Part shown: positions 26,501 through 41,584 of the stretch, one piece after another
Numbering within the stretch: the first letter of the stretch is position 1
Layout of the letters: each line of letters begins with the position of its first letter
Origin: Chitinophagales bacterium
Lineage (GTDB): Bacteria > Bacteroidota > Bacteroidia > Chitinophagales > LD1
Reading direction: 5' to 3'
Length of the DNA stretch: 64,000 nucleotides
Assembly: GCA_046329515.1 (NCBI GenBank)
Contig: JAXLUM010000003.1
Location: 9,606-73,605, forward strand
Notes under the pieces: model-generated
Told to the model about the DNA's origin: nothing
What the model saw: only the letters and a program-made list of their open reading frames with translations
Databases searched by the model: none
Position numbers and translations under genes: made by a program

Positions 26501-29500
26501 AACTCAGTTACGCCTAACTACATAAGCTTTGATGATATTTCGCTTACGCAAACACCACCTTGCCCAACAGCACCAACTATAGGCACTATAACCACTACCT
26601 CAACCACAGCAACAGTACCGTTTACCTGTACCAGTTGTGCAGGTACGTTTATTGCTGAATACAGCACCTCATCGGGCTTTACACCCGGCACCGGTGCTAC
26701 AGCTGGTGGCGGTACAGTAACTTCTCCTGTAAGCAGCACACCTATTACCATTAACGGCCTTAGCCCAAATACTACGTATTATGTATATCTGCGTAATAAC
26801 TGTAGCGGCGCTTTCTACAGCCCTAATTCAACTGTAGCATCATTTACCACACCTTGCGCTCCTGTGGCTGTTGGTTGGACTGAAGGTTTTGAAACCGTAA
26901 CGCCGGGTTCAGGCGCAGGCACCGGAACTTATTTACCTACCTGTTGGTCAGAAATTGGTGATTGGACCAGCGCAACAGGCGTAGTAAGTACATACCGCCA
27001 GCCGCGTACGGGCAACCAGTTTATTTATACCAACTGGACCGCTGATGACTGGTTATTTACAGCACCAACAACCTTAACCGCAGGTGTAAGCTATGATTTT
27101 ACGTACTATTATATAGTTGATAATAATGCCGGTACCGGTACTTCAGCTTTCTCAACCGAGTTAAAATACGGCACAGCGCAAACGGTAGCCGGTATGACCA
27201 ATACCATTACCACCCTGGCTAACGTTGCAACAACAAGTACGTATACCAAGGTTACGCAAAGCTTTACACCATCGGTTAGCGGCGATTATTCAATAGGCAT
27301 ACACGTTTATGTAAACTCAACAACGCCTAACTATTTCAGCTTCGATGATATTTCATTAAGCGTAACACCGGCATGTTCATTGGCACCAACACCGGGCACA
27401 ATAACAACCACACCTGTTTCGGCTACTATACCGTTTACATGTTCAGCTTGCACTGGTACGTTTATAGCCGAATACAGCACAACCTCGGGCTTTACACCGG
27501 GCACCGGCGCTACAGCAGGTGGTGGTACAGTAACCACACCGGTTAGCAGTTCGCCAATAAGCCTTAGCAGCTTATCACCTAATACAACCTATTATGTTTA
27601 CCTGCGCAATAACTGTTCGGGGTCTACGTACTCACCAAATTCTTCGGTATTCAGCTTTACTACACCTTGTGTAGCGGCAAACGTACCATACAGCGAAAGC
27701 TTTGATTTGGTTACACAACCTGCATTGCCAAGCTGTTATTCAATAGAGAACACTAATGCCGATGCAAACGTTTGGAAGACATGTACAAGCACAAGCCTTG
27801 GTAACCTAACTGCCGTAACACCTCGTTCGGGCACTAACCAAATGGGTATAGCCTACAACACCGGTGCAGCTATGAATGACTGGTTCTTCCTGCCACAATT
27901 AAACTTAACCGGTGGTACTTCTTACCGTTTAACATTCTGGGCACGAGGTTACACCGGCTTAACTGAGCAGTTAGAAGTAAAGTACGGAACAGCAGCTTCT
28001 TCAGCATCTATGACCAGCGGCACCATTCTTTCAACTATAAGTATTGTTGGCGGTGGTGTATATACACAGTATACAGCAGACTTTATACCGGCTTCAAGCG
28101 GCACCTATAACATAGGTTTCCATGGTTTATCAGCCTCTAACCAATGGTATCTGTTTGTGGATGATATTGCCGTTAATTTAACGCCGGCATGTCCTACAAC
28201 ACCAACTATAGGTACACCGGCCGTTACTGCAACTTCAGCAACGCTGCCGTTTACCTGCACCAGTTGCAGCGGTACGTTTATTGCTGAATACAGTACATCA
28301 TCGGGCTTTACACCGGGCACCGGCGCAACAGCGGGTGGCGGTACTGTTACTGCACCGGTAAGCGGCACGCCAATAACCATTAGCGGTTTAACGCCAAACA
28401 CTACCTACTATGCCTATGTGCGCAATAACTGTAGTGGTTCTAATTACAGCGCTAACTCATCTGTAGTAAGCTTTACCACTTATTTAGATTGTTCTACAGC
28501 CACACCGCTTAGTTGTGGTGTAGCAGGCAGCTATAGCGTGGCAGGCGCAACAGGCGCAACGGCTTATAACTTCTCAGGTACCAGCCCTAACAACAGTTGC
28601 GGTAACGCTACCCCGGGCCCTGAGCAGTTCTTCTCATTTACACCGGCAGTTACCGGCCCTTATAAATTCGACGGTGTTAAAACCGGTACCGCTAATGTTA
28701 GCACATTGTATAAAGATGCCAGTTTAGGTTGCGGCCCTACAGGTTGGACCTGCCTTGGTATAATTAATAACGGTGGTTTCAGCAACACTATTACTTTAAC
28801 CGGCGGTGTTACCTACCTTATTATTGTAGATAATCAATCAGCAGTTAACAGCGCAACCGGTACAATAACTGTTACCTGCCCATGTTCAGGTACACCTAAT
28901 GCGGGCACCATAACACAAACCAGCCCGCAATATTTCTGCGGCACTACATCTACTGTTACTTTAAATGCAACCGGCTTAAGTACTACCCCGGGCATTAGTT
29001 ACCAGTGGGAGGAGAGTGACGATAATGGTGTAAGCGACCCATGGGCCAACGCCGTAGGCGGCAGTGGTGCAACTACAGCCAACTATACTTCACCGGCTAT
29101 TACCAAAACGCTTTACTACCGCTTAAAGTCTACCTGCAGCACTTCGGGTCTTTCAGCAACAACGGCTCCGTTCCAGGCTATACAAAATGCTAACCCAACA
29201 GTAAGTATTACACCTTCGGTAAGCAGCGTATGTTCAGGTGTGGGTACATCAGTTACATTATCTGCTACTCCTTCAACAGGTGCTACGTATTCATGGAGCA
29301 ACTCATTGGGCTCAACTCAATCAGTTTCTGTAGTTCCATCTATTACTTCTACTTATACTGTTTCAGCTACTGTTACTGCAACCACCTGTTCGGCTACGGC
29401 ATCAACCACTATTACGGTTAATCCTGCTCCACCGGTTACAACCGGCGCTTCAGTTTGCCCCGGCGGTAGCGCAACCATTTCAACATCCAGTACCTGTAGC

Positions 29501-32500
29501 GGATTTGTAAACTCAGGTACTACTTATTCAGGTGCATGGAATGGTGCAACAGACCCTACAGCTAACCGCATAACAACAAGTCTTTCAAACAGCACTACCT
29601 GTTCGTTCAGCAGCACTGTTTACAACCGTAACTATGTTGCCCAGCAGTTCCAGGTAAGTGTAACGGGTTCTTACACCCTTGAAATGACTGATAATACCGC
29701 TTTTGATGGTATGGCTTATATAACAACAGGTGCGTTTGTGCCCGGCAACTGTGCCGGCGGCGGAACGTGGATTGTTGGTGACGATGATGGAGGTACAGCA
29801 GGTAATGAGCCTTTAATGACCACTACCTTAACCGCAGGTGTAACGTATACACTTGTTTCAACAACCTATGCTTTATCAAGCGGCACATACACCGGTGCGT
29901 TTAGCTGGACAATTACCCCACCAAGCGGCGGCCAGATTATGTTACCGGGCACAGTTAATATGAACTGGTATACCGCCTCTTTCGGTGGCTCGCCGGTAGC
30001 TACGGGCTCAACAATTAACCCGGTTACTTTAAGCCTGGTTAACTCAAACATTTCAGGAACTACTATTTTCTACGCTGCATGTTCAAGTAACAATACCTGC
30101 CGCACAGCTACAAACTTTGTGGTTTACAATCCACCGGTAGTTGCGCCTACGGCATCTCCGGTTACAATTTGTAACGGCGCTGCTTCTACAATTTCAGCAG
30201 GGGCAACAGCAGGCAGCAATCCTATTACTACCTATGCATGGAGCAGCGGTTTAGCAGGTAACGTATCAAGCGGTTCTGTAGCTCCTACAACTAATAGTTC
30301 GTACACTGTAACAGTTACCGATAACAAGAGTTGTACTTCAACCGGCACAATAGCAGTTAACGTTATTACCTGCGGTGCTAACACCTGGTTAGGCGGCAGC
30401 AGCGATTGGCATACTGCCGGCAACTGGAGCAATGGTTTTGTGCCAACCCTTTGTTCGCACGATGTTATTATACCGGTTACGCCTAACAACCCTGTAGTAA
30501 GCACAGCGGTTAACGTAGGTAATGTTCAATTACAAAACGGAACCACACTTACCCTTAACGCTAACCTTAACGTATGCGGTAACTTTAGCGGCGGTGCAAG
30601 CACTGTAGCACAGGTTAACGGCAGCGCACGCTTGGTATTAAGCGGTAGCAGCGCACAACAGTTAAGCGGCAAGCTTGAAGTAAACACCCTGCGCTTAAAC
30701 AATGCAGCAGGCGCTTCTTTACAGGCAGGCGCTTCAGTTGATGTGTTTGATGCAGTAGAATTACAAACAGGTGTATTAAGCACCGGCAGCGCTACACTGC
30801 GTTTCCGCAGCACATCACCTTCGCAAATTGCTATACTTAATAACTTCGGCCCGGGCTTTACCGGCAGCTTAAGCGGTAATGCAACTGCACAACGTTTTGT
30901 ACCTGTTGGCGGCACCAACCAGCACTATTTTGGTACACCGGTAACCAATGCTACGTTTGGCCAATTAGGCGCAACTGGCGTTCCCGGTTATGTTCTACCA
31001 ACCTATAACTGCGACCAAACTCAAATTGCTATTAACAGCCCTTATGGCACCGTGTACCAGTGGCATGATGACAAGCCGCTAAACGCGCAGTGCTTATACA
31101 ACGGATGGGAAGTTAAAATTAGCGGTACTACACAAGCGGGCCGCGGTTACTCTACCTTCCTGTCAAATGGTGTATTCAGCATTACCGGTAATATTAACCA
31201 GGGTGCCAGTTACTCCGTTAACGGTATGAATAACATTGGCTGGACAAGCAATACCCTACAGACCTATGGCTTTGTTCCTGCTGCATACGAATCGGGCTGG
31301 CATATTGTAGCTAACCCTTACTTAGCACCACTTACCTTAAACGGCCACACACCTGATTTTGATGCGGCTGCTATTTGGGTAACCAGCGGACCATTCAGCG
31401 GTTCATACCAACCTATTCCAATTACCGGTGGCAGCATTGCTCCGTTCCAGGGCTTTATTGTTCACCGCTCATCATCAAGCAGTGTAAACTTTACATTTAA
31501 CAAGAGTGAGTGTACTACCAGCGCAGGCCAAACCTTCTATAAGCAGGCCAGCCAGCATGCTATGAACATTCAGGTTAGCGGTAATGGCTTTAATGATATT
31601 ACCTATGTTGAGTTTAACAGCGATGCTACCAATACCTACGACGTGGGTTACGATAACCGTAAGCCGTTAAGCGTTTTAGGTCAGCCTACTATCTTTACGT
31701 TCAATACCAATAACGCAGAGCGTTTATCAATTAACGTAAACCGCAGCATTGATGAAACGCCGAATGTGCCAATGAACTTTATACCGGGCGCAAACGGAAC
31801 CTTTACCTTTACTGCCGATGGTGTTAACAGCTTCGATCCTACCAGCTATGTGTTCTTAGAAGATAAGCAAACAGGCCAGTGGATTGATTTACGCCAGAAC
31901 GCTACGTATACTTTCCAAAGCACTACTGCTGATGCACACGACCGTTTTGTATTGCACTTTACACCTGCCGCTGAATTAAGCGCCAGCGATGCAAGCTGTG
32001 CTACAATGGGCCAGATTACTATTGAACAGCCCGGCACTGCCAACTGGAACTACACCGTAAGCAACCAAAACAATGTGGTAATTGCCAGCGGTACATTGAA
32101 CCAGAACAACAGCGTTAACGTAAGCGCAACAGCAGGTGTTTACCAGCTTACATTGGTTGATAACAGCGGCTACACTGTAGTTAAGAACGTGCAGGTTAAT
32201 GGTGTGCAAACCATTGCCGCTGCTATGACTGCTGATAAGAACACAGTTGAAACAGCGCAAGACGTAACCTTTACTTCTACAACGGCTAATGCAGCTACTA
32301 CTGAATGGAACTTCGGTGATGGCGCTACAGCAACTACAGCTACAGCAACCCACCAATACCAAAGCGAAGGTGTTTACACTGTAAGCTTAACGGTAACCAA
32401 TGCAGATGGTTGTTCTTCAACTGTTCAGCAAACAATTACTGTTACAGCTAAAGAAGCAACAGGTATAAACAACCTTGATAAGGATGCTATACGCATGTGG

Positions 32501-32725
32501 AGCAATGAAAGCAACATCTTTATTGACTTTAGCAAGGTTAAACAGGTTAAAGCAAGCATTGCTATTTACAACGTGCTTGGCCAAAAACTGTTGGAAGATA
32601 CCTGGACCAAATCAAGTATCTACACCAAAACGCTTAGCAATCTTGATGCGGCTTACATTTTGGTGCATGTAAACAACAACGGAAAAATGACTACTGAAAA
32701 ACTGTTTATAACAGGAACCAAGTAA
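23501..32725 (+). CDS. Giant (3074 aa) T9SS-secreted adhesin-like protein: parallel beta-helix, FN3-like and lectin/anchor-like modules, PKD domain, type-A CTD
   Basis: Signal peptide. N-terminal beta-helix-like repeats (NITIKNC.., NNLITKC.., GNTIG..). Three tandem 271-aa modules. PKD motif WNFGDGATAT...YQSEGVYTVSLTVTNADGC. C-terminal sorting-domain-like 80 aa. Confidence 0.85.
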   Translation: MTKLKHFGKAKLALLSALCFLSITAAQAQVTKTVGGTGGADYATISAAFTAINSGLITGNITLNVISSTTEPATPVQLNASTVGSASYTSVLIKPTATATINSAASPTSGKGVIEFCGADNVTIDGAIAAGGSTQDLTIAIAGINVTQAAIRLAGGTTSPAFGCNNITIKNCKIVGNATGTTFTGVFGIAAASGYSSTTNTSTFSSAGTSADPDNLTITNNLITKCYTGIYVKATSGNLADNLVIKGNTIGSATSGSEVLFRGIDVQYTSTTANAGGVIDGNDIQVKQSTALIDIAGIQLSNCTNTIVRGNKLHDIINANTSGYGAYGIYLIVANSGVEISNNFIYNILGYRWSSTAPPTMSTGGPDHAIGVNLEVATNTKIWSNTINLYGAIPGTSNSVSADIALLSNTSVTGTDIRNNVLVNTQTTSTSSRVVAVYAVSGVTFTQSNYNIYWVGATAGTAPYFVGLLGTDRTNLAAWQGATTKDGNSLMADPLLVSSTNLHITSSSSPAKAAGSNPGVYVDYDAQTRGTSCDIGADEFSPTCFATGPVSVSGITQFAANLSWSAANTAPSNGYDIYYSTSSTAPTGATTPSFSGVSGLTQGLSGLTPSTLYYVWIRSNCGGTQSTWSGPTQFTSLANPCVTPTANTAGPLTYGTVTSTSIPVTSFPAASPAADGYLVVYSTSSTLSSGPVDGTTYAAGNALGGGTVVQANATTAFTISSLSANTLYYIFIYSYNNSGCSGGPKYFATAYSTSKLTCAAAATALAGTATGQTTATITWTNPTGASSWLLEYKPTSGSTWTTASPAPTGSPYSLTGLSASTTYDIRLTASNASCGTLVTTTSAFTTVCGAVAAGWSEGFETVTPGSGAGTGTYLPNCWSEIGDWTSATGTVSTYRKPRTGNQFIYTQWSADDWLFSPLTTLTGGVSYDFTYYYIADNNGGSGTTAFATELKYGTAQTAAGMTNAITTLTNVGTTSTFVKVTGTFTPATTGDYTVGIHVFVNSVTPNYISFDDISLTQTPPCPTAPTIGTITTTSTTATVPFTCTSCAGTFIAEYSTSSGFTPGTGATAGGGTVTSPVSSTPITINGLSPNTTYYVYLRNNCSGAFYSPNSTVASFTTPCAPVAVGWTEGFETVTPGSGAGTGTYLPTCWSEIGDWTSATGVVSTYRQPRTGNQFIYTNWTADDWLFTAPTTLTAGVSYDFTYYYIVDNNAGTGTSAFSTELKYGTAQTVAGMTNTITTLANVATTSTYTKVTQSFTPSVSGDYSIGIHVYVNSTTPNYFSFDDISLSVTPACSLAPTPGTITTTPVSATIPFTCSACTGTFIAEYSTTSGFTPGTGATAGGGTVTTPVSSSPISLSSLSPNTTYYVYLRNNCSGSTYSPNSSVFSFTTPCVAANVPYSESFDLVTQPALPSCYSIENTNADANVWKTCTSTSLGNLTAVTPRSGTNQMGIAYNTGAAMNDWFFLPQLNLTGGTSYRLTFWARGYTGLTEQLEVKYGTAASSASMTSGTILSTISIVGGGVYTQYTADFIPASSGTYNIGFHGLSASNQWYLFVDDIAVNLTPACPTTPTIGTPAVTATSATLPFTCTSCSGTFIAEYSTSSGFTPGTGATAGGGTVTAPVSGTPITISGLTPNTTYYAYVRNNCSGSNYSANSSVVSFTTYLDCSTATPLSCGVAGSYSVAGATGATAYNFSGTSPNNSCGNATPGPEQFFSFTPAVTGPYKFDGVKTGTANVSTLYKDASLGCGPTGWTCLGIINNGGFSNTITLTGGVTYLIIVDNQSAVNSATGTITVTCPCSGTPNAGTITQTSPQYFCGTTSTVTLNATGLSTTPGISYQWEESDDNGVSDPWANAVGGSGATTANYTSPAITKTLYYRLKSTCSTSGLSATTAPFQAIQNANPTVSITPSVSSVCSGVGTSVTLSATPSTGATYSWSNSLGSTQSVSVVPSITSTYTVSATVTATTCSATASTTITVNPAPPVTTGASVCPGGSATISTSSTCSGFVNSGTTYSGAWNGATDPTANRITTSLSNSTTCSFSSTVYNRNYVAQQFQVSVTGSYTLEMTDNTAFDGMAYITTGAFVPGNCAGGGTWIVGDDDGGTAGNEPLMTTTLTAGVTYTLVSTTYALSSGTYTGAFSWTITPPSGGQIMLPGTVNMNWYTASFGGSPVATGSTINPVTLSLVNSNISGTTIFYAACSSNNTCRTATNFVVYNPPVVAPTASPVTICNGAASTISAGATAGSNPITTYAWSSGLAGNVSSGSVAPTTNSSYTVTVTDNKSCTSTGTIAVNVITCGANTWLGGSSDWHTAGNWSNGFVPTLCSHDVIIPVTPNNPVVSTAVNVGNVQLQNGTTLTLNANLNVCGNFSGGASTVAQVNGSARLVLSGSSAQQLSGKLEVNTLRLNNAAGASLQAGASVDVFDAVELQTGVLSTGSATLRFRSTSPSQIAILNNFGPGFTGSLSGNATAQRFVPVGGTNQHYFGTPVTNATFGQLGATGVPGYVLPTYNCDQTQIAINSPYGTVYQWHDDKPLNAQCLYNGWEVKISGTTQAGRGYSTFLSNGVFSITGNINQGASYSVNGMNNIGWTSNTLQTYGFVPAAYESGWHIVANPYLAPLTLNGHTPDFDAAAIWVTSGPFSGSYQPIPITGGSIAPFQGFIVHRSSSSSVNFTFNKSECTTSAGQTFYKQASQHAMNIQVSGNGFNDITYVEFNSDATNTYDVGYDNRKPLSVLGQPTIFTFNTNNAERLSINVNRSIDETPNVPMNFIPGANGTFTFTADGVNSFDPTSYVFLEDKQTGQWIDLRQNATYTFQSTTADAHDRFVLHFTPAAELSASDASCATMGQITIEQPGTANWNYTVSNQNNVVIASGTLNQNNSVNVSATAGVYQLTLVDNSGYTVVKNVQVNGVQTIAAAMTADKNTVETAQDVTFTSTTANAATTEWNFGDGATATTATATHQYQSEGVYTVSLTVTNADGCSSTVQQTITVTAKEATGINNLDKDAIRMWSNESNIFIDFSKVKQVKASIAIYNVLGQKLLEDTWTKSSIYTKTLSNLDAAYILVHVNNNGKMTTEKLFITGTK
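26041..28479 (+). repeat. Three tandem 813-bp (271-aa) coding repeats inside the giant adhesin gene
   Basis: Units start near 26041, 26854 and 27667. Units 1 and 2 share long near-identical DNA runs (gaaaccgtaac.ccgggttcaggcgcaggcac.gg.ac.ta.tta.c....tgttggtcagaaattggtgattggac). All three share the FTCTSC.GTFIAEYST.SGFTPGTGATAGGGTVT module. Confidence 0.85.
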
Positions 32726-32853: not shown

Positions 32854-35028
32854 TTATTGTTTGCTGAATTTTTTAACCGCGTTTTTACCGCTTACTGATT
32901 TTGTTTTAAGGGTGTAAAGCCCGCCGGCCAAAGGGGCTACATTAATTTTTGTTATTTGCCCCCTAACAAATAGTACCTGCTGCCCGGTTATACTATAAAC
33001 TTCTGCCGTTTCAATTTCTTCATCGCAGCTTATTATTAAAAGCTCTGTGGCAGGGTTAGGGTAAACACTCAGTGCATTGTCTTGTGCGTCCTCAATACCA
33101 TTAACAATTACGTTAACGCTGTTAGAATATTTTTGACAGCTACCATTGGTAGTAGCTACCATATAGTCTCCGGTTTGAGTAACTACATAAGTGCTGTCAT
33201 TAGCATTAGGAATAAATGTTCCGTTTAGATACCAGATAAAAGATGCACCCGGCGTAAACTGCGTAGCGGTTAAAACCGTGCCTGCCTCAACAATTACTGC
33301 TGCAGTATTAGTGGTTACGCTTACCGCTGCTGTGTTGGAGGTATCGCTACCCGCGCCGCAACCTGAGGTAGCAACGTAGTAGTAATTGCCGCTTTCTGTT
33401 GCAGTTACAAGGGGTATATAAATATTTCCTGATACTGCCCCGTTTATAGGCTGACCATCCTTATACCATTGCTGGGTGTAATTGGTGGTGCCTGTTACCG
33501 TTAAGGGGCCCAGTTGCAGGGTTTCGCCCTGGCATAAAGGAACGTTGGCTGAAAGTTGTGAGCTAATAACCGGCGCATTGCAGGGTACTGGTGGAGGTGT
33601 AACAAAATTTACCAGGGCAGTGCAGTGGTTGGTGTCTTCAAACAATATCTCGTATGTTTCAGGGCAAAGACCACCGGGGATAAAAGGTGATGATGTAACC
33701 TGTGCGGTAGAACCTCCGCCTGTCCAGCTAAATGTAGCGGTCATAGGGAAGGCGCCGCTAAGCGATATGTGCGCATTCCAGTCGCATCCGCCGGTGCCAT
33801 AAACAGAATCGAGCTGAGCAGAGAAGTTAGCGCAAAGCGAAGGATTAGAACCTTTACCTAAAACTTTAATAACAAAACCCGCAAGGCCTACGGTGGTTGG
33901 ATGATTGTTCAAATCAGGGCAGAAGCCTGATATAAGAATGTCGTTACCTAACATCTCCATATCGGTATAATAAACTTGCTGTGTGCCCAATAGGTAGGCG
34001 GCATTCATAGGGGCATAGTTGAAACTGTTTCCTATACCATCCGGATTAAAGGCATTGTCCAGCGTGTAGCTTGCGTTTAAAGCAAAAATATTGGAACCTG
34101 TAAACGCATAAATTTCACCGGTAGCGGCATGGCGTGTAAGTTGAATAACGCCGCTAACCGCTGCAGGAACAGCCGTTGTAGTACCGTTATTTATATTCAA
34201 CAGCATAAGGTTATCGCCACCTAAAAGTACTTGTGTGTTACTGATGGCTATCATAGCTTCATAATGCACATTGCCTAAATTATAAGTAGCAGTTGCCACG
34301 CCGTTGTTAATAATAAATACAGTGCTGCTGCCCATTACGTTGTATACCAATAAGGCGCATGTATTGCTACCGGGTATGGTGCGTAAAGCTTTTGGGCGCC
34401 ATGTGCCTATACCACCGGCTATTTTAGGAAAGGTGATTACCGTAGTGCCAGGTGCCTGAGCAAACTGCGTAATGTACAAGCTGTCGCCGGTGTAATTGAT
34501 TACGGCTGTTACAATATCTCCGCCTACTAATTGATCAGAGCAGTTTGGGTTGCTTTGCCCTACGGGGTAGTTAGGCCCGTAAAGCGCTTCGGTAATAAAT
34601 GAATCAGGTTGGGTTGTTTGATGAAACATAGGGTTGGTAGTGCCATCAAAGTTATACGCCATGTTTTGGTAGTGGCCACCGTTGGGGTTTTGCCCGCCAA
34701 GGAAAAACTTATTGCCGGCTACAGCGCCGGTATAGCCGCCTGCCGCCTGGTAGGCCAAACCGTTCTTACTCATTAGCTGGCTGCCATTATTATCGAACTT
34801 ATTAGCCAGGTAAGCGCCATTGGTTACGCCGCCAACCCAAAACTGGTCAGTAACGCCCGGTAAAATTTCCATATACTGTATATAGGCGCCGCCTGTAAGC
34901 GTATCAATATAAAAACCGTTTTGCCCAAAGGCCATATCATAGCGGGTTCCGGCTGAAGCCCCCCCAGCATGCACGTACCCGCCGTAAAAGGCCAGTAAGA
35001 ATGCGAAAAGAGTAATTGTCTTTTTCAT
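32854..35028 (-). CDS. T9SS-secreted beta-propeller/Ig-like protein (type-A CTD)
   Basis: Signal peptide after the ATG at 35028 (MKKTITLFAFLLAFYGGYVHA). C-terminus LSVYPNPATELLIIS...GGLYTLKTK...VKKFSKQ. Confidence 0.78.
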   Translation of the reverse strand: MKKTITLFAFLLAFYGGYVHAGGASAGTRYDMAFGQNGFYIDTLTGGAYIQYMEILPGVTDQFWVGGVTNGAYLANKFDNNGSQLMSKNGLAYQAAGGYTGAVAGNKFFLGGQNPNGGHYQNMAYNFDGTTNPMFHQTTQPDSFITEALYGPNYPVGQSNPNCSDQLVGGDIVTAVINYTGDSLYITQFAQAPGTTVITFPKIAGGIGTWRPKALRTIPGSNTCALLVYNVMGSSTVFIINNGVATATYNLGNVHYEAMIAISNTQVLLGGDNLMLLNINNGTTTAVPAAVSGVIQLTRHAATGEIYAFTGSNIFALNASYTLDNAFNPDGIGNSFNYAPMNAAYLLGTQQVYYTDMEMLGNDILISGFCPDLNNHPTTVGLAGFVIKVLGKGSNPSLCANFSAQLDSVYGTGGCDWNAHISLSGAFPMTATFSWTGGGSTAQVTSSPFIPGGLCPETYEILFEDTNHCTALVNFVTPPPVPCNAPVISSQLSANVPLCQGETLQLGPLTVTGTTNYTQQWYKDGQPINGAVSGNIYIPLVTATESGNYYYVATSGCGAGSDTSNTAAVSVTTNTAAVIVEAGTVLTATQFTPGASFIWYLNGTFIPNANDSTYVVTQTGDYMVATTNGSCQKYSNSVNVIVNGIEDAQDNALSVYPNPATELLIISCDEEIETAEVYSITGQQVLFVRGQITKINVAPLAGGLYTLKTKSVSGKNAVKKFSKQ

Positions 35029-35156
35029 TTTGTTTGATTTGTTGATTGAATTTTGTTTGAGCGCAAACATCAGCCACCTGAGGTGGGTATTCCGGGCCAT
35101 TTCATGAATGGTAGGTTTCAGTTTATGAATGGTAAATTTTTGTGGTAAACTTGGGT

Positions 35157-37028
35157 ATGAGTTTTTACGGCACCTCTATTGCTGATTTACTGAAAAGGCT
35201 TGAAACCGAAACGGGAGCGAAAAAGGCTGATACCTACCTGTATTTGGCGGTTGAGCATAAACCATCGGACCCTAAGCTGGCCCTGGATTATGCCAATAAG
35301 GCACTGGAGATTTGCCGTGAAGGAAATTTTAAAGAAGCGGAAATTGATTACTGGACGGTAAGGGCCATATTGGAAGAAGGTGTTTCGGCCTCGGAAAAAG
35401 CAATAGAACACCTTGAAAAAGCTGTGGCCATAGCCGAAGAGATTGGCGATAAACAGGGCAGGCTTACCGCCCTGCAAAAAATAGGCTTGCATAAACTGCG
35501 GCAGCACAAGGCTGATGAAGCGCGCGAAATTTTATTGCAATGCGTGGAGGATTATAAAGCCCTGCCCGATACATTAATGAAGGCGGAATGCTATCACCAA
35601 ACAGCCCACTACTTATTAAATGAAGATTTGGCAAAAGCCACTGAACTGGCATTGGCGGGGCTTGAAATGGCCCGAAAGGTTGGCCGCCCGCTTGATACGG
35701 TTCACCATTTAAAAACACTGCAAACTATAGCTGATAAAAGCGGCGATGTAAAAGGCGCTATACATTACGGCACAGAAGTATTGCGTATTAAGGACGAGAA
35801 CAATGATGAAACTGCGCTTATTGGTGTTGCGCGGCATTTAGGCCACCTGTATTTAAAAGGTGGTGATGGCGAAACCGCACGCCGGTATTTTGAACGCGAA
35901 ATAAAATTGCATTCCTCCCCTGTAAATGCGCACCGCACTAAGCAATTGCAACTTAATGATGCTGAAACGTATTTCTATGCCGGTAAAAAGCAGGAAGCAT
36001 TAAACTATGCCCAACAGGCAGTGGCTGAGGCACAAGTAGAAAACAATGAGCGAAAACTGGGCAGCGCTCAATTTCAATTGGGTAAACTGCTGCTGTTATG
36101 CAGCGATTATGCGCAAGCGGCAGCGCTGCTAAACCAATCTATCACTACAAAGGGCGAAGCTATGCCTGCGATAGACCACATTACCACCTTAAGCTTATTA
36201 GCAGAGTGTTATGGGCAGTTGAACCAATTTGATGAAGCGTATAAAGCACTAAAGCAAAAAATGGCCTTAGAGGCTGAGCTGATAAATACGGAACGCATTA
36301 AAGAAGTAGCGCTGCTGAATAAAAAATATGAGGCTGAAAAGCGGGAAGCTGAATTGCGCGAGCTTAAAATAAAACAACAACAAATTGAGTTGCAGCGCAC
36401 GGAAAGTGAATTGAAGGCTATTAAAGCCCAAATGAACCCGCACTTTATTTTTAACGCGCTTAACAGCATACAGGAAATGTTCTTTATTGGAGATAAGCGA
36501 TTGGCGAATGAGCACCTGGGTAAGTTCAGCCAGTTAACGCGCGATATACTTAAGGCCAGCGGCAAACGCACCATATCCTTGGCGGAAGAAGTGGAAATGT
36601 TGCGGAAGTACCTGCAACTGGAAGGGCTGAGGTTTGAAACGGGTTTTTCGTTTTCAATAACTGTTGAAGATGAAGATGCTGCCGACGATATTCTATTGCC
36701 GCCCATGCTTATACAACCCTACGTGGAGAATGCCATAAGGCATGGCTTACTACATAAGAAAGGAGAGAAGCGCTTAAGAGTACACTTTGCATTTAATGAA
36801 GCAGAAGAATATTTAAGTTGTGTGGTGGAAGACAATGGTATTGGCAGAAAGACAGCGGAAGAAATAAACAAAAACCGCAGGCAGTTGAATGAATCGTTCT
36901 CAACCTCTGCTAATGCCAAACGGTTAGAGTTATTGAACCAAAGCCGCAGTAAGCGCATAGGTGTAAATTATGATGATTTGGAGGAAGGCACAAGAGTGTC
37001 TATTTTAATACCGCTTAGTTATGATTAA
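35157..37028 (+). CDS. Cytoplasmic TPR-repeat sensor histidine kinase (LytS/YehU-type His_kinase domain)
   Basis: N-terminal TPR-like helical repeats with no TM segment seen. Coiled coil. NPHFIFNALNSIQ phospho-acceptor region. HATPase region PPMLIQPYVENAIRHG...DNGIG. Confidence 0.85.
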   Translation: MSFYGTSIADLLKRLETETGAKKADTYLYLAVEHKPSDPKLALDYANKALEICREGNFKEAEIDYWTVRAILEEGVSASEKAIEHLEKAVAIAEEIGDKQGRLTALQKIGLHKLRQHKADEAREILLQCVEDYKALPDTLMKAECYHQTAHYLLNEDLAKATELALAGLEMARKVGRPLDTVHHLKTLQTIADKSGDVKGAIHYGTEVLRIKDENNDETALIGVARHLGHLYLKGGDGETARRYFEREIKLHSSPVNAHRTKQLQLNDAETYFYAGKKQEALNYAQQAVAEAQVENNERKLGSAQFQLGKLLLLCSDYAQAAALLNQSITTKGEAMPAIDHITTLSLLAECYGQLNQFDEAYKALKQKMALEAELINTERIKEVALLNKKYEAEKREAELRELKIKQQQIELQRTESELKAIKAQMNPHFIFNALNSIQEMFFIGDKRLANEHLGKFSQLTRDILKASGKRTISLAEEVEMLRKYLQLEGLRFETGFSFSITVEDEDAADDILLPPMLIQPYVENAIRHGLLHKKGEKRLRVHFAFNEAEEYLSCVVEDNGIGRKTAEEINKNRRQLNESFSTSANAKRLELLNQSRSKRIGVNYDDLEEGTRVSILIPLSYD

Positions 37029-37764
37029 GGCAATACTGATAGATGATGAGGCAAAGGCGCGGCGCATACTTGAAGCGCTGATAAAAGAATACTGCCCCGA
37101 TGTAGAGATAGTGGCCACTGCCGAAGATGTGCCTTCAGGTGTTATTGCCATTAACCAGCATAAACCGGATGTGTTATTTCTTGATGTGGAAATGCCGGGT
37201 TATACGGGCTTTCAACTGCTCGACTTTTTTAAAGAAACTGATTTTGAAATTGTGTTTACCACAGCGCATAGCGATTATGCCTTGCAGGCTTTTAGGGTAA
37301 GCGCCATCGATTTTTTATTGAAACCTATTCAGATTTCGGAACTGATTGCTGCGGTAGATAAAGTGAAAGCGAAGATGGGGCAAAGTAAAGAGCGGCTTTC
37401 CGTTTTGCGCGACAACTTCGAAAACAACGCCATTAAAAAAATGGCTTTACCCGTAGCGGAAGGCTTACTGTTTGTAAATGTAGAAGAGCTTTCGCACCTG
37501 GAGGCAGATGGCCCGTACACTAACTTCCATTTCTCTGACGGACGAAAAATATTGGTGAGCAAAAAGATAAAGGAGTTTGAAGAAGCGCTTACCCAGCGTA
37601 ATAGTTTCTTCCGTACGCACCGTTCGTACATTATTAACCTGAAAAAGATAAGCCAGTATGTAAAGCAGGAGGGGGGATATGTGTTGCTGGAAAATGATAT
37701 TCAGATACCCCTGGCCCGCGAAAGGAAGAATGATTTTTTAACGGTAATTGAACGTTTTGCCTAA
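37021..37764 (+). CDS. LytTR-family DNA-binding response regulator
   Basis: Receiver domain (ILIDDE...DVLFLDVEMPG). C-terminal LytTR (FFRTHRSYIINL). Overlaps the kinase gene by 8 nt. Confidence 0.9.
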   Translation: MIKAILIDDEAKARRILEALIKEYCPDVEIVATAEDVPSGVIAINQHKPDVLFLDVEMPGYTGFQLLDFFKETDFEIVFTTAHSDYALQAFRVSAIDFLLKPIQISELIAAVDKVKAKMGQSKERLSVLRDNFENNAIKKMALPVAEGLLFVNVEELSHLEADGPYTNFHFSDGRKILVSKKIKEFEEALTQRNSFFRTHRSYIINLKKISQYVKQEGGYVLLENDIQIPLARERKNDFLTVIERFA

Positions 37765-38153
37765 TGAACAAGGAGATACAGGAATACAACAACAAGCAGC
37801 TTGAAGGTGATAAAGAGATTTGCGATTTATTAGCCACTACTATTTGCGCTGCATTACCCGAAGCGGAAAACAAAATATGGCATGCGCACCCCGTTTGGTT
37901 TTTGGACGGTAACCCTGTTGTAGGGTATAGCAAATTGAAAGGAAGTGTTCGTTTGCTGTTTTGGAGTGGACAATCTTTTGAAGAAGCAGGCTTACAAAAG
38001 GAGGGAAGTTTTAAAGCTGCTGAAGCTCGTTTTACCGATGCCAGCGAGGTACAGGTGAAAGACCTTAAGCGCTGGCTTAAAAAGGCGCGCGATATACAAT
38101 GGGATTATAAGAACCTGGTAAAGCGCAAAGGAAAACTGGAGCGCCTGAAGTAG
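37764..38153 (+). CDS. DUF1801 (YdhG-like) domain protein
   Basis: 129 aa with K.WHAHPVWFLDGNPVVGYS.LKG.VRLLFW, typical of YdhG-like proteins. ATG overlaps the regulator stop. Confidence 0.6.
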   Translation: MNKEIQEYNNKQLEGDKEICDLLATTICAALPEAENKIWHAHPVWFLDGNPVVGYSKLKGSVRLLFWSGQSFEEAGLQKEGSFKAAEARFTDASEVQVKDLKRWLKKARDIQWDYKNLVKRKGKLERLK

Positions 38154-38199
38154 TCAGCACTAGTAATCTGCAACATATTATTGCAGAGAAATAAAATAT

Positions 38200-38231
38200 A
38201 AAGCCGCCCCCTTTTTAGGGGCGGCTTTTTT
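38200..38231. terminator. Bidirectional rho-independent terminator
   Basis: aAAGCCGCCCCctttttaGGGGCGGCTTttttt lies between two convergent stops (38153 and 38235). Confidence 0.85.
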
Positions 38232-38234
38232 CAG

Positions 38235-38360
38235 TTAGCACTTGCAGTCTGCACAGTTGCAGGGTGAACACTGGCAACCGGTGGTTTTGCAGTTACAGTT
38301 TTCGCATTTACAGTTGTTGCAAGAGCAGTTCTGCTGCTTCAGTTTCAATGTTGTTTCCAT
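38235..38360 (-). CDS. 41-aa cysteine-rich, metallothionein-like peptide (not in ORF track)
   Basis: Own translation: METTLKLKQQNCSCNNCKCENCNCKTTGCQCSPCNCADCKC*. It has 12 Cys in two copies of CxCxxCxCxxCxC. ATG start with an A-rich leader, a -7 box about 30 nt upstream, and a terminator 3 nt after the stop. Confidence 0.7.
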   Translation of the reverse strand: METTLKLKQQNCSCNNCKCENCNCKTTGCQCSPCNCADCKC

Positions 38361-38389
38361 CTTTTTAATTGTTTAGTTAATTAATGATG

Positions 38390-38397
38390 CAAACATA
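38390..38397 (-). promoter_or_regulatory. Bacteroidota -7 promoter box (TAtgTTTG on the minus strand) for the Cys-rich peptide gene
   Basis: Minus strand reads ..cccctATGTTTGcatcattaattaactaaacaattaaaaagATG. Confidence 0.5.
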
Positions 38398-38426
38398 GGG
38401 GCAGTAGGCCGCCTGCGGTTTATACT

Positions 38427-38456
38427 ACTTTGGGTGCGTGTTATAAAACTTTGGGT
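38427..38456 (-). promoter_or_regulatory. Two direct repeats ACTTTGGGT spaced 21 bp apart (candidate AraC-type operator)
   Basis: actttgggt occurs at 38427-38435 and 38448-38456, upstream of the -7 box and abutting the stop of the AraC gene. Confidence 0.35.
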
Positions 38457-39032
38457 TTAAATTTTATCCAACGCCTTACGCTTGGCGGCTCCAACTTCTT
38501 TATAATGCGAAGGCGTAAGCCCTGTTATTTTTTTAAACTGGCTCGATAAGTGGGCCACGCTGCTGTAGTTCAGCTCTACGGCAATTTCTGATAAGGTTAG
38601 CTGACGGTAAACAATAAGTTCTTTCGCCTTCTCAATACGCTGCTCAATAAAATACTGCTCAATAGTTCGGCCTTCAATGGCGGAAAACATACTGCTTAAG
38701 TGGGTGTATTCGTAGTTAAGCTGCTCAGCCAAATATTTGGAAAGGATTATTTTTTTATCGCTGCTATCTTCTTCGTTGCGCGCTTTTTTAATAATCAACT
38801 GCTTTGTTTTTTCTATCAGCGCACTGGTGTGGCTGTCAATTAATTCAAAGCCTACTTTTTCCAGTTCTTCTGCCAGCTTGTGTTTTTGCGTATCGCTTAT
38901 TTTTTCGGGCAGGTGTATTTCACCAAAAATAACTTCGTTAAACGGTATAGCTGCCTTATTTAAAATGGTTTCTACCGACATTATGCAACGCCTGCATACC
39001 ATATTCTTAACCAGTAAAACTGAAGCCGCCAT
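38457..39032 (-). CDS. AraC-family transcriptional regulator with N-terminal HMA-like (MxCxxC) metal-binding domain
   Basis: N-terminus LLVKNMVCRRCIMSVETIL (MxCxxC in a ferredoxin-like segment). C-terminal AraC HTH (LTLSEIAVELNYSSVAHLSSQFKKITGLTPSHY). The ATG at 39032 is preferred because the TTG at 39062 overlaps a -7 box. Confidence 0.8.
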   Translation of the reverse strand: MAASVLLVKNMVCRRCIMSVETILNKAAIPFNEVIFGEIHLPEKISDTQKHKLAEELEKVGFELIDSHTSALIEKTKQLIIKKARNEEDSSDKKIILSKYLAEQLNYEYTHLSSMFSAIEGRTIEQYFIEQRIEKAKELIVYRQLTLSEIAVELNYSSVAHLSSQFKKITGLTPSHYKEVGAAKRKALDKI

Positions 39033-39059: not shown

Positions 39060-39067
39060 CAAAATTA
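39060..39067 (-). promoter_or_regulatory. Bacteroidota -7 box (TAatTTTG on the minus strand) for the AraC regulator
   Basis: Minus strand reads gcgcaTAATTTTGgcgcgg, about 28 nt upstream of the ATG at 39032. Confidence 0.4.
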
Positions 39068-39157: not shown

Positions 39158-41584
39158 CTATCTCAAAACACTAAAGCGTAGGGTTTGCTTATTGCTGCCA
39201 CTTACAATGGCTGCAGTGTATAATCCGTTAGTTATATCGCTTACATCAAGCGTTAACAGTTGCTTGCCTGCAGCAAGGCCGTTGAAGGCCTGTTGTTTTA
39301 CTACCGCGCCTGTGGCGTCAAAAATCTGAACGTTGTAGGCTGCGTCAACTTCGTTTTCAATTGCCAGGTTTAATAGGCCATTGGTAGGGTTAGGGAATGC
39401 TACTACTGAACCTAATGTGTTTTGTTCATCGTTTACAGAAGACACTACAGAAAGAGGAATAAAGTTGCCGCCTTCTGCCAACGCTACGTATAAACCAAAG
39501 GCAGGGCCGTTGTTGTTAGCTGCAGGGTTTAAGAAACCTGAGGCCAACACTACACCGCTTTTGCCTGCAAGTGGGGTTACATCTGCACTATAGGTTACAA
39601 TGGTGTTAGTGCCTGAAGAATCTTTTACGGCCAATTGATAAGCGCCGGCTAATACCTGTAAATAATTGGTTTGAGCGCCGTAGGAAGCGTTGTTTACAAT
39701 TGTTGTTCCGCCAACTGCTGCTACGTCAACGGTAGGTGCATCGGTAGCGCCATGTATTACAAAGAAATCTACATTAGCTACAAGGGCAGCCTGCTTTTGT
39801 GCCATTGGTTTAACCAGTATCTCAAATGCAGTGCTTATACCATCGGGGTTAGCAGCAAAACCACTACCAACTACGCCCGAGGCTGTAAGAACATAATTTT
39901 CATTAGCATTTAAAGTGTAACCGTTTGTCCATAGGGCATCAGCTACTGTCATTGATGTTTTAGGGGCAATGGCTATTTCGTGCTCAACACCGGCCAGTAA
40001 ATCAATAAACGGCGTAGCAGTGCGGAAAGCGAAGTTGTCAAGCGCTTTGGTGCCATCTATATAAACATCCACTGAATCAGCTAATGGGTCGGCACAGTTG
40101 TGTAATACCTGCACACTTGCAAATTGCTGCGATGGTAACTGTAATACAGTTCCGTTGGCTAACAGTGCAAAAATTCCAAAGGCAGGGCCGTTGTTGTTCA
40201 TTGATGGAGTTAAGAAACCGCTGGCGAAAACTAATGCGGCACCGCCGCTCAGGCTGCTTAAATCAGCTACGTAGCTGGCTACTACAGTTGAAGAACCTGC
40301 AGGTGTAATATCCAGTGGATACCATGTAGGGTCTACACTTAAGTAAGCTGTGTTATCCTGGTATTTTGCGTTAGATACCAGTGTAGGGCCGCCGTTGCTC
40401 ACTTTAACGTCTACAGCAGGTGCATCGGTTACACCATGTAATACTGCAAAATCTACTTTGTTACCATTGCTTGCAGCAAGTTGTGCGTTAGCAATTACTT
40501 TTAAAGTAAAGGCTGTGCTCACACCATCGGGGTTTACTGAAAAGCCTGTGCCTACAACACCTGAAGCAGCTACTATATAGTTTTGGTTAGCTGCTAAGTT
40601 AATGTTGGGGAATGATGCCAGCGCCTGTGCTACTGAAGTTGAGTTAGATGGCGCTACAGCAATAGTGTGGTTTACACCTGCTAACAAATTGATGAACGGT
40701 GTACCTGTGCGGAAGGCAAAGTTATCTAAGGCCAGTGCACCGTCAATATAAACATCTACTGAAGCGGCAGCAGGGTCAGCACAGTTATGCAGCACCTGTA
40801 CTTTTGCAAACTGCTGTTGTGGTAATTCAATTACAGTACCATCAGCTAAAGCAGCAAACAAACCAAATGCAGGGCCGTTGTTGTTAGCCGAAGGGGTTAA
40901 AAAGCCTGAAGCAAAAACTACAGCTGCTCCGCCGCCAAGGCCGCTAAGGTCAGCAACGTAACTTGCTACTACAGTGCTGGTACCGGCTGCGGCAATATCA
41001 AGCGCATACCAGGTTGGGTCTACACTTAAATAACCGCTGGCATCGCCATACTTAGCATTAGGCACCAGGGTTGCGCCGCCTGTTAGGTTTACATCTACGC
41101 CCGGTGCATCAGTAGCGCCATGAAAAACAGCGAATTCTACTTTACCGCTGTTAAATGAAGTGCGGCGTGCAGGGGCAAGAATTTTTAAATCGAAACCTGT
41201 GCTTATGCTGTTTGGGTTAGCAGCAAAACCGCTGCCCACCACACCTGAAGCAATTACCACATAGCTTGAATCAGTAGCTAAGGCAGGTAAGGTTTGCGAG
41301 TAGATAGCAGGGTCAGAAGCAGAAGCGCCGGGAGCTTTTATATAGGCCGTGATAGCCACGCCCGATGGCACCGTTAAAAATGCCGATGCCGTGCGAAAGG
41401 CAAAGGCAGAAGAAATAAGCGTTTGACCGCCGCCGAAATCAGCATAAACTGAAACAGTATCTGCTGCGGGGTCGGCGCAGTTGTGAATAAGTTGTACGTA
41501 GGAGTTGGCCCGGGTTTGGCCAATGCTGAAGCATGCCAGAATGGTAAGGCACAGCATCTTTGTCCTGATAGTTAAATTTCTCAT
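39158..41584 (-). CDS. DUF4397-repeat protein with T9SS type-A CTD
   Basis: Signal peptide. Three units of about 230 aa, each with two DUF4397-like halves (VQ.LHNCADP.A.SVDVYIDG...; DFAV.HG.TDAP.VDV). C-terminus VVAFPNPTNGLLNL...GLYTAAIV...LRFSVLR. Confidence 0.75.
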   Translation of the reverse strand: MRNLTIRTKMLCLTILACFSIGQTRANSYVQLIHNCADPAADTVSVYADFGGGQTLISSAFAFRTASAFLTVPSGVAITAYIKAPGASASDPAIYSQTLPALATDSSYVVIASGVVGSGFAANPNSISTGFDLKILAPARRTSFNSGKVEFAVFHGATDAPGVDVNLTGGATLVPNAKYGDASGYLSVDPTWYALDIAAAGTSTVVASYVADLSGLGGGAAVVFASGFLTPSANNNGPAFGLFAALADGTVIELPQQQFAKVQVLHNCADPAAASVDVYIDGALALDNFAFRTGTPFINLLAGVNHTIAVAPSNSTSVAQALASFPNINLAANQNYIVAASGVVGTGFSVNPDGVSTAFTLKVIANAQLAASNGNKVDFAVLHGVTDAPAVDVKVSNGGPTLVSNAKYQDNTAYLSVDPTWYPLDITPAGSSTVVASYVADLSSLSGGAALVFASGFLTPSMNNNGPAFGIFALLANGTVLQLPSQQFASVQVLHNCADPLADSVDVYIDGTKALDNFAFRTATPFIDLLAGVEHEIAIAPKTSMTVADALWTNGYTLNANENYVLTASGVVGSGFAANPDGISTAFEILVKPMAQKQAALVANVDFFVIHGATDAPTVDVAAVGGTTIVNNASYGAQTNYLQVLAGAYQLAVKDSSGTNTIVTYSADVTPLAGKSGVVLASGFLNPAANNNGPAFGLYVALAEGGNFIPLSVVSSVNDEQNTLGSVVAFPNPTNGLLNLAIENEVDAAYNVQIFDATGAVVKQQAFNGLAAGKQLLTLDVSDITNGLYTAAIVSGSNKQTLRFSVLR

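Follow-up and report, generated by a model that had tools for sequence, protein, structure and literature searches.

Does a 41-codon open reading frame (ORF) that gene callers pass over encode a bacterial metallothionein, and what would control it? The question is raised by a 64,000-nt stretch of DNA from a Chitinophagales bacterium (GenBank assembly GCA_046329515.1, contig JAXLUM010000003.1, positions 9,606 to 73,605; hereafter the window), for which a first-pass annotation, made from the letters and a list of ORFs, had proposed a gene for a metallothionein-like peptide. The frame lies on the same strand as, and 96 nt past, a gene for a putative regulator with an N-terminal HMA-like and a C-terminal AraC-type domain. 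We find that the peptide gene is tied to this sensor and to an operator across many genomes. We estimate at roughly three in four the probability that the locus is a two-gene metal-buffering module, comprising an HMA-AraC sensor and a cytoplasmic metallothionein that is probably induced by copper.

A cysteine-rich coding sequence under purifying selection

38235–38360, minus strand: coding sequence, stop codon included, of the 41-residue, 12-cysteine metallothionein-like peptide (ATG at 38358–38360)

Translation of 38235–38360 gives METTLKLKQQNCSCNNCKCENCNCKTTGCQCSPCNCADCKC, followed by the stop codon, and agrees exactly with the first-pass description of a hidden 41-codon minus-strand gene with 12 cysteines in a double CxCxxCxCxxCxC arrangement. 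Cysteine makes up 12 of the 41 residues (29%), and histidine, phenylalanine, tyrosine and tryptophan are absent. The pattern C-x-C-x2-C-x-C-x2-C-x-C occupies residues 12–24 and 29–41, with KTTG as the linker. The peptide had also been called internally duplicated. This holds for the cysteine pattern, but a recent duplication is not demonstrated: the two halves of the coding sequence are identical at 23/39 nt and, outside the cysteine codons, at just 9/21. Among the window's stop-to-stop segments of 30 or more residues, 999 in all, the peptide is an outlier, having 12 cysteines per 31 residues against 7 in the runner-up; the top count in 200 windows simulated with a second-order Markov model was 9.

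Gene callers make no call for the peptide, its position is likewise left uncalled on the near-identical contig L041, and an exact look-up in the protein database returned neither the peptide nor the TTG-start version of the regulator. A short, uncalled ORF could be a chance frame or part of a non-coding feature, for example a small RNA, in the 3′ region of the regulator gene. A scan with the regulator, covering one genome per GTDB species, yielded 38 loci. The six closest come from metagenome-assembled genomes (MAGs) of Chitinophagales or other Bacteroidota, encode regulators 66–81% identical to that of the window, and all carry a same-strand cysteine-rich ORF of 48–58 residues ∼80–100 nt past the regulator gene. 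A seventh orthologue, P0001, is a ‘hypothetical protein’ in locus L039 with the same arrangement and was the sole database protein retrieved by our first profile. The window, L001–L006 and L039 form the set of eight orthologous loci referred to below.

The first-pass annotation had named conservation of the frame in related genomes and synteny with HMA-AraC regulators as checks on its proposal, and both are borne out. Of the six frames, that of the peptide alone stays open in all eight loci, and indels in the protein alignment comprise whole codons. The proportion of non-synonymous differences (pN) is lower than that of synonymous differences (pS) in every pair, with pN at 0.05–0.46 and pS at 0.46–1.0 except in the near-identical pair L004/L005 (pS 0.10, pN 0.05); dN/dS is 0.13–0.48 where computable. 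Ten invariant cysteine codons vary solely between TGC and TGT, and all eight proteins terminate in C-x-C-stop. The regulator gene adjoins the peptide gene in 8/8 loci and in most of the 84 metagenomic operator copies described below; the other neighbours are not conserved across the eight loci. The peptide ORF is a real, conserved coding gene with purifying selection on its cysteine codons. A frame open by chance, or a feature acting at the RNA level only, is excluded by the frame conservation and the substitution pattern; the outlying cysteine count and the independent retrieval of 52 similar ORFs speak against it as well, and we assign this refuted reading next to no probability.

Composition and relatives of the peptide

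The peptide family comprises 68 distinct sequences of 30–59 residues, 65 of which contain CxCxxCxC. A hydrophilic, cysteine-free lead (median 16 residues) is followed by a core, C-x-N-P-x-C-T-C-x-x-C-x-C-G-x-x-C-x-C. Short forms have ∼8 cysteines, and long forms, to which the window member belongs, carry a second cluster and 12–14 cysteines. The window peptide is the sole family member with a perfect double CxCxxCxCxxCxC. Across 54 distinct members the composition is 21.7% cysteine, 0.4% histidine, 0.4% phenylalanine, 0.1% tyrosine and no tryptophan. A mass below ∼10 kDa, a high content of cysteine in CxC and CxxC motifs, and few or no aromatic residues and histidines are operational hallmarks of a metallothionein, and the peptide has all three. 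Metal bound at high content in metal-thiolate clusters and induction by metal, which further define the class, would be predicted for it; a dedicated HMA-AraC sensor and an operator shared with copper genes are indirect evidence for induction. An AlphaFold 2 (AF2) model of the peptide contains no secondary structure (mean predicted local distance difference test score of 51), which is compatible with a fold that depends on metal and would be weak evidence for one at most.

Database comparisons returned few relatives. The window peptide alone retrieved nothing in a word-index search of 5.8 billion proteins and nothing in an exhaustive phmmer search of 1.84 billion representatives; a profile of 44 sequences matched 18 proteins among the 5.8 billion, all of them ‘hypothetical’ or unnamed. 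In Pfam and NCBIfam there is no significant match for the peptide or for 44 relatives. The recurrent sub-threshold Pfam matches of 44 members are to metallothionein families only (four to PF12749, three to PF01439 and one to PF02068), and comparison of the family profile with PDB sequences gave just a spurious LDL-receptor repeat (E = 2.8).

The first-pass annotation had likened the cysteine spacing to that of eukaryotic metallothioneins, such as the CKCKECKC motif of the mammalian proteins. The likeness stands for composition but does not extend to homology: the best score against the eukaryotic and plant families PF12749, PF01439 and PF02068 is 10.6 bits (Metallothio_Euk; cut-off 22, E = 0.57). 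Like the eukaryotic Cu/Zn metallothioneins (the vertebrate β-domain, Neurospora crassa MT and yeast Cup1), the peptide is small, contains ∼30% cysteine in CxC and CxxC motifs, is devoid of aromatic residues and histidine, and would lack secondary structure when metal-free, judging in its case from the AF2 prediction. Unlike them, the family has its own cysteine-free lead and core motif, and it matches Metallothio_2 and PEC only at E-values of at least 0.026.

With the bacterial BmtA/SmtA/PmtA proteins (PF02069), which are paired with the repressor SmtB, the peptide shares a small size, a cytoplasmic location and an adjoining gene for a dedicated metal sensor. The N-terminal CxCxxCxC of SmtA (CACEPCLC) recurs in the family, as CTCEPCLC in L096 and as CSCEPCLC in L100. 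However, the family has neither the histidine ligands nor the zinc-finger-like aromatic core, so that it does not qualify as a member; PF02069 gave no match at E ≤ 10 in 44 members, and hhalign gave the family and an approximate SmtA sequence a probability of 3%, with the 10 aligned columns confined to the CxCxxCxC stretch. Mycobacterial MymT, which is copper-induced and binds Cu(I), is likewise a small, cysteine-rich bacterial protein of similar size, but it differs in cysteine pattern and sequence, is under a CsoR/RicR-type repressor instead of an AraC-type activator and belongs to another phylum. The Csp copper storage proteins are also bacterial and cysteine-rich and store Cu(I) as thiolate clusters; they are ∼120-residue four-helix bundles that form tetramers, whereas the 41-residue peptide has no predicted helices and no sequence match to them. 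As judged from its sequence, the peptide is a metallothionein by compositional definition that lies outside every described metallothionein sequence family.

A 2025 review recognizes two bacterial metallothionein families, BmtA/SmtA/PmtA and MymT, distributed over cyanobacteria, pseudomonads, a few enterobacteria and mycobacteria. No description of a Bacteroidota metallothionein or of the NPNCTC motif turned up in open-access papers or bioRxiv. The first-pass statement that no Bacteroidota metallothionein has been characterized accordingly holds for the literature, Pfam and NCBIfam. Peptides with an NPxCTCxxCxCG core also occur, without the operator, on high-GC and apparently non-Bacteroidota contigs (L133/L134:3001–3165, 62% GC; L135:3001–3114, 57% GC); the L135 record is labelled Mycobacteroides abscessus. 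One of these high-GC peptides, P0012, contains two such cores, and its gene lies behind those of a P-type ATPase, a protein with HMA and a DUF5134 protein, which adds to the link with copper described below.

A hydrophilic lead of variable length (∼10–18 residues) in front of a cysteine-rich core, encoded by a small ORF, also recalls the leader and core of a precursor for a secreted or modified cysteine-rich peptide, such as a ribosomally synthesized and post-translationally modified peptide, a bacteriocin or a signal. We rejected this candidate, which we consider very unlikely: no conserved maturase, radical S-adenosylmethionine enzyme, protease or ATP-binding cassette exporter adjoins the gene in the eight loci, the peptide has neither a signal peptide nor a double-glycine motif, and its sole constant partner is the metal-sensor regulator.

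The regulator combines HMA-like and AraC-type domains

38457–39032, minus strand: regulator gene, 191 residues, N-terminal HMA-like domain and C-terminal AraC-type helix-turn-helix (HTH); the start is probably the ATG at 39032

In the ORF list the regulator gene reaches back to a TTG at 39062, whereas the orthologues align from the MAAS start. The C-terminus contains a double HTH, with Pfam matches to HTH_18 (E = 3.5e-18, 66.1 bits, cut-off 33.6) and HTH_AraC (E = 6.6e-11, 42.5 bits, cut-off 26.6). The N-terminal 70 residues have no match to Pfam HMA at E ≤ 1 when used as a single sequence. Combined into a profile, the N-terminal regions of 25 homologues match HMA domains in ATP7B (E = 1.2e-12) and in CopZ (E ∼ 2e-3), with the CxxC motifs aligned, and also in other copper ATPases. 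An invariant N-M-V-C-x-R-C-I in the regulator N-termini aligns with the M-x-C-x-x-C metal site, and single-sequence AF2 modelling predicts, with low confidence, a β-α-β-β-α arrangement for this part of the protein. From these matches we infer a one-component metal sensor in which an HMA domain is joined to an AraC-type DNA-binding domain. We found no description of an HMA-AraC copper regulator in open-access papers or bioRxiv.

A conserved control region and terminator

The features between the regulator and peptide genes, and behind the latter, are as follows.

38441–38456, minus strand: distal operator half-site ACCCAAAGTTTTATAA, which begins 1 nt past the regulator stop and is conserved in the orthologous loci
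38420–38435, minus strand: proximal operator half-site ACCCAAAGTAGTATAA, a direct repeat of the distal one, separated from the −7 box by 22 nt
38398–38419, minus strand: GC-rich 22-nt spacer ACCGCAGGCGGCCTACTGCCCC with a short palindrome and without a TTTG −33 element
38390–38397, minus strand: Bacteroidota-type −7 box TATGTTTG (consensus TAnnTTTG), 29 nt upstream of the ATG
38361–38389, minus strand: conserved A/T-rich leader CATCATTAATTAACTAAACAATTAAAAAG
38187–38228, minus strand: intrinsic terminator with a 12-bp GC-rich stem, a 5-nt loop and a U-rich tail (hairpin at 38200–38228)

This intergenic DNA is better conserved than the coding sequence. The candidate operator consists of two direct repeats of ACCCAAAGTnnTATAA with a period of 21 bp, and these are the only two zero-mismatch copies of ACCCAAAGTnnTATAA in the window. 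The 22-nt spacing between operator and −7 box was read from the window, L001 and L006. Activator sites of the AraC type classically lie beside the −35 region as direct repeats spaced by one or two turns of the helix; the ACCCAAAGTnnTATAA repeats fit this layout, which makes them the probable binding site of the regulator. The first-pass annotation had pointed to an ATG preceded by an A-rich leader and, ∼30 nt upstream, a TAnnTTTG −7 box, and all of these elements are in place. Like the operator repeats, the −7 box is kept in 8/8 orthologues (TATGTTTG in six, TACCTTTG in two), and the leader segment CATCATTAAWTAAC is near-invariant among them. The promoter has no −33 element and therefore should need an activator.

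Within the spacer, a small hairpin can form, GGCGGCCTACTGCC. The spacers of L001–L006 have GC-rich palindromes at the same place that differ in sequence, for example CCCCTCGGGGG or CCCCCGTGGGGG. The palindrome might act as a weak terminator for the regulator gene or have a structural role in the promoter.

The terminator hairpin has a free energy of −23.7 kcal/mol (z = −4.7 compared with shuffled sequences) and is bidirectional, in that it also closes the convergent DUF1801 gene (37764–38153, plus strand). A strong terminator had been placed 3 nt past the stop codon: the hairpin and its U tract are as strong as described, but the structure starts 6 nt past the stop, and 3 nt only if flanking A-U pairs are counted. 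A GC-rich hairpin follows the stop codon in 8/8 orthologues, with compensatory changes at 4/10 pairs.

With a terminator directly behind a short ORF dominated by one codon, the peptide could in principle be a leader peptide whose cysteine codons stall the ribosome and so control terminator read-through. Rfam models of threonine and leucine leaders do give weak matches (27 bits, compared with a gathering score of 55), but no Rfam match reaches its threshold, and it is the terminator hairpin that produces them. Past the terminator the window continues with genes on the opposite strand, the first being the convergent DUF1801 gene, and the downstream genes of the orthologues vary in identity and orientation, none of them being for cysteine biosynthesis. 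Peptide length and cysteine spacing are conserved, which stalling would not need, and we found neither a conserved same-strand downstream operon nor an alternative antiterminator fold. The convergent orientation of the next gene, and the lack of conservation downstream among the orthologues, led us to reject the attenuator as highly improbable.

The operator alone retrieves cysteine-rich ORFs

Metagenomes were scanned with CCCAAANTNNTRTAA-N6-CCCAAANTNNTRTAA, a query free of coding information. The scan matched 88 stretches, and the 80 loci examined contain 84 operator copies, most of them 1–5 nt past a regulator homologue of 56–77% identity. The element TAnnTTT[GA] follows 15–35 nt downstream in 76 of the 84 copies. 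The copies are followed by:

52/84 operator copies: intact ORF of 34–59 residues with 7–14 cysteines, starting 51–77 nt downstream
15/84 operator copies: other, long genes (multicopper oxidase, TonB-dependent receptor, PF00756 ‘putative esterase’ lipoproteins, unknown lipoproteins)
11/84 operator copies: short or eroded ORFs
6/84 operator copies: contig end

The operator and −7 box precede genes for PF00756 lipoproteins, a TonB-dependent receptor and a family of unknown lipoproteins (MKALTILSVF...); these targets are spread over L048, L049, L050, L086, L121, L002:4913–5686, L054:3203–5524, L055, L073, L091, L111 and L119, the TonB-dependent receptor being that of L054. These targets look like uptake or metallophore functions, and the regulon would then be wider than metal sequestration.

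Regulator and operator are intact in L066, L089 and L094, in which the peptide ORF is reduced to 7–15 codons with TGC-rich remnants, and the gene has apparently been lost in these lineages. Three further copies have an in-frame TAA at a position where relatives have a glutamine codon, MKST...KDK*KCDNPNCTCENCNCGSNCTCKNCK, with the cysteine-rich part still in frame:

L063, 569–604, minus strand: operator, ORF start 68 nt downstream
L074, 391–426, minus strand: operator, ORF start 68 nt downstream
L109, 20–55, plus strand: operator, ORF start 68 nt downstream

The L109 copy is diverged in sequence, has the same stop and has lost one cysteine too. These copies could represent a shared pseudogene, read-through or recoding. 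Because of the eroded and stop-bearing copies, the gene appears dispensable in some lineages. Elsewhere the cassette of operator, promoter and peptide gene is duplicated in tandem (operators at 3790–3825 and 4196–4231 in L052, and at 1012–1047 and 1420–1455 in L088), so that two slightly different 38-residue, 8-cysteine peptides are encoded behind a single regulator. In L007, from a Saprospiraceae MAG, a long tandem array of GGCGTTTAG lies immediately 3′ of the regulator homologue (4590–4700).

The constant association with a regulator also bears on a role of the peptide as a thiol or redox buffer, as a reserve of cysteine or sulfur, or as a feedback modulator that strips metal from the sensor and so resets it. 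The tight pairing would suit the last of these and the very high cysteine content any of them, and in two loci (L039 and L135) the convergent neighbour is a thioredoxin/AhpC-like gene. Neighbours beyond the regulator are, however, not conserved, the regulon and the sensor domain indicate metals, and the regular CxC/CxxC spacing that the 68 members conserve is typically seen in cluster-forming ligands and not in a plain thiol reserve. We regard these roles as doubtful.

Copper is the favoured metal

Genes directly behind regulator homologues with 36–53% identity encode P1B ATPases, a CopA-like multicopper oxidase, HMA-MauE fusions, an HMA-ArsP permease and a small HMA protein. Five ATPases beside related regulators all score as the Cu(I) type: they reach 586–611 bits with TIGR01511 (cut-off 397), clearly more than with the Cd/Zn model, and contain the CPC and MxxSS motifs. 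An element of the form TnnTRTAA-N19-25-TAnnTTTG stands right after the regulator stop in 10/31 distant loci, with 0.0026 expected per locus; the relaxed half-site pattern gave these 10/31 matches, on a background of 2 matches in 432 kb, and a strict regular expression 4/31. A multicopper oxidase gene lies directly behind the same operator in L065, and L002 has genes for a multicopper oxidase, the regulator, the peptide and an esterase, in this order. Because the same operator and related sensors precede multicopper oxidases and Cu(I) ATPases, we favour copper, which at somewhat better than even odds is the likeliest metal.

Several observations weigh against a copper-induced metallothionein. 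The window itself contains no copper ATPase or other metal gene, and the peptide has no sequence homology to any characterized metallothionein. The TonB-dependent receptor and PF00756 esterase lipoproteins behind the operator look uptake-like and do not suit a simple regulon for excess copper, and a few operator-linked peptide copies are eroded or have an in-frame stop. Regulators linked to the peptide form a clade (56–81% identical to that of the window) distinct from the ATPase-linked clade (36–53%), and CxxC sites of HMA domains also bind mercury, cadmium, zinc and silver.

The last two points favour a module of the same architecture that serves another metal, either in the buffering or detoxification of Zn(II), Cd(II), Hg(II) or Ag(I) or in zinc storage. 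Peptides with cysteine as their only ligand in CxC and CxxC motifs bind all thiophilic metals, as is established for metallothioneins; HMA CxxC motifs also occur in Zn/Cd and Hg proteins, with ZntA and MerTP among the weaker matches; and relatives of the regulator precede HMA-MauE and HMA-ArsP proteins too. Against this stand the exact operator in front of the multicopper oxidase gene of L065, the other multicopper oxidase that flanks the module in L002, and the Cu(I)-type scores of 5/5 ATPases tested. We consider a metal other than copper unlikely, though the most serious competitor to a copper-responsive module.

Proposed mechanism

In the copper-responsive module that we propose, the CxxC motif of the sensor's HMA domain would bind a thiophilic metal, and the AraC-type domain would serve as the DNA-binding part that contacts the two ACCCAAAGTnnTATAA direct repeats. 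The metal-loaded sensor, most probably in its Cu(I) form, would switch on a monocistronic mRNA of ∼170 nt, with its 3′ end at the strong terminator. This mRNA would be translated into the cytoplasmic 41-residue peptide, with two CxCxxCxCxxCxC blocks behind a hydrophilic lead of 10 residues. The 12 cysteines would wrap metal-thiolate clusters and sequester excess metal in the manner of a metallothionein, with a capacity, by analogy with known metallothioneins, of ∼4 divalent ions or 6–8 Cu(I).

The proposed control resembles yeast Ace1/CUP1, in that the gene is apparently activated by a dedicated metal-binding activator and not de-repressed; the putative activator here is an HMA-AraC protein, which is unrelated to Ace1. 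SmtA differs in this respect, being controlled by ArsR/SmtB-type de-repression, where we propose activation by HMA-AraC. On present evidence we think it probable, with rather less assurance than for the module itself, that the peptides form a new, widespread and near-unannotated metallothionein family of Bacteroidota, with some high-GC relatives. Its transcription would be under a metalloregulator of a new type, an AraC-family activator that senses metal through an HMA domain, in a circuit like that of Ace1/CUP1, with a regulon that includes a multicopper oxidase, a TonB-dependent receptor and esterase lipoproteins.

Bacteroidota dominate soils, sediments, oceans and guts. As the family is nearly always missed by gene callers, studies of metal resistance that start from genomes would pass over the metal-buffering capacity of Bacteroidota. 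The HMA-AraC protein, if our reading is true, would extend the small set of bacterial metal-sensor families by a new class, and the clearly defined operator makes its regulon predictable from sequence. The module is compact, comprising a sensor of ∼190 codons, a 96-nt control region and a 41-codon peptide gene; it would be easily tested and could serve as a biosensor or metal-sequestration part.

Surroundings of the module in the window

Beyond the terminator lies a plus-strand cluster (35142–37764) with a LytS-type histidine kinase that contains TPR and overlaps a LytTR response regulator by 8 nt. The ATG of the DUF1801 gene shares its first base, 37764, with the stop codon of this response regulator, and in L003, too, a DUF1801 gene converges on the peptide gene. 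Further genes of the window, which show no link to the module, encode three large proteins that are, or resemble, cargo of the type IX secretion system (T9SS): a repetitive giant of 3074 residues, a 748-residue protein and an 808-residue protein with six DUF4397 repeats and a confirmed Por_Secre_tail.

23501–32725, plus strand: T9SS cargo or look-alike protein
32854–35100, minus strand: T9SS cargo or look-alike protein
39158–41584, minus strand: T9SS cargo or look-alike protein

These T9SS-type proteins confirm that the host is a member of the Bacteroidota.

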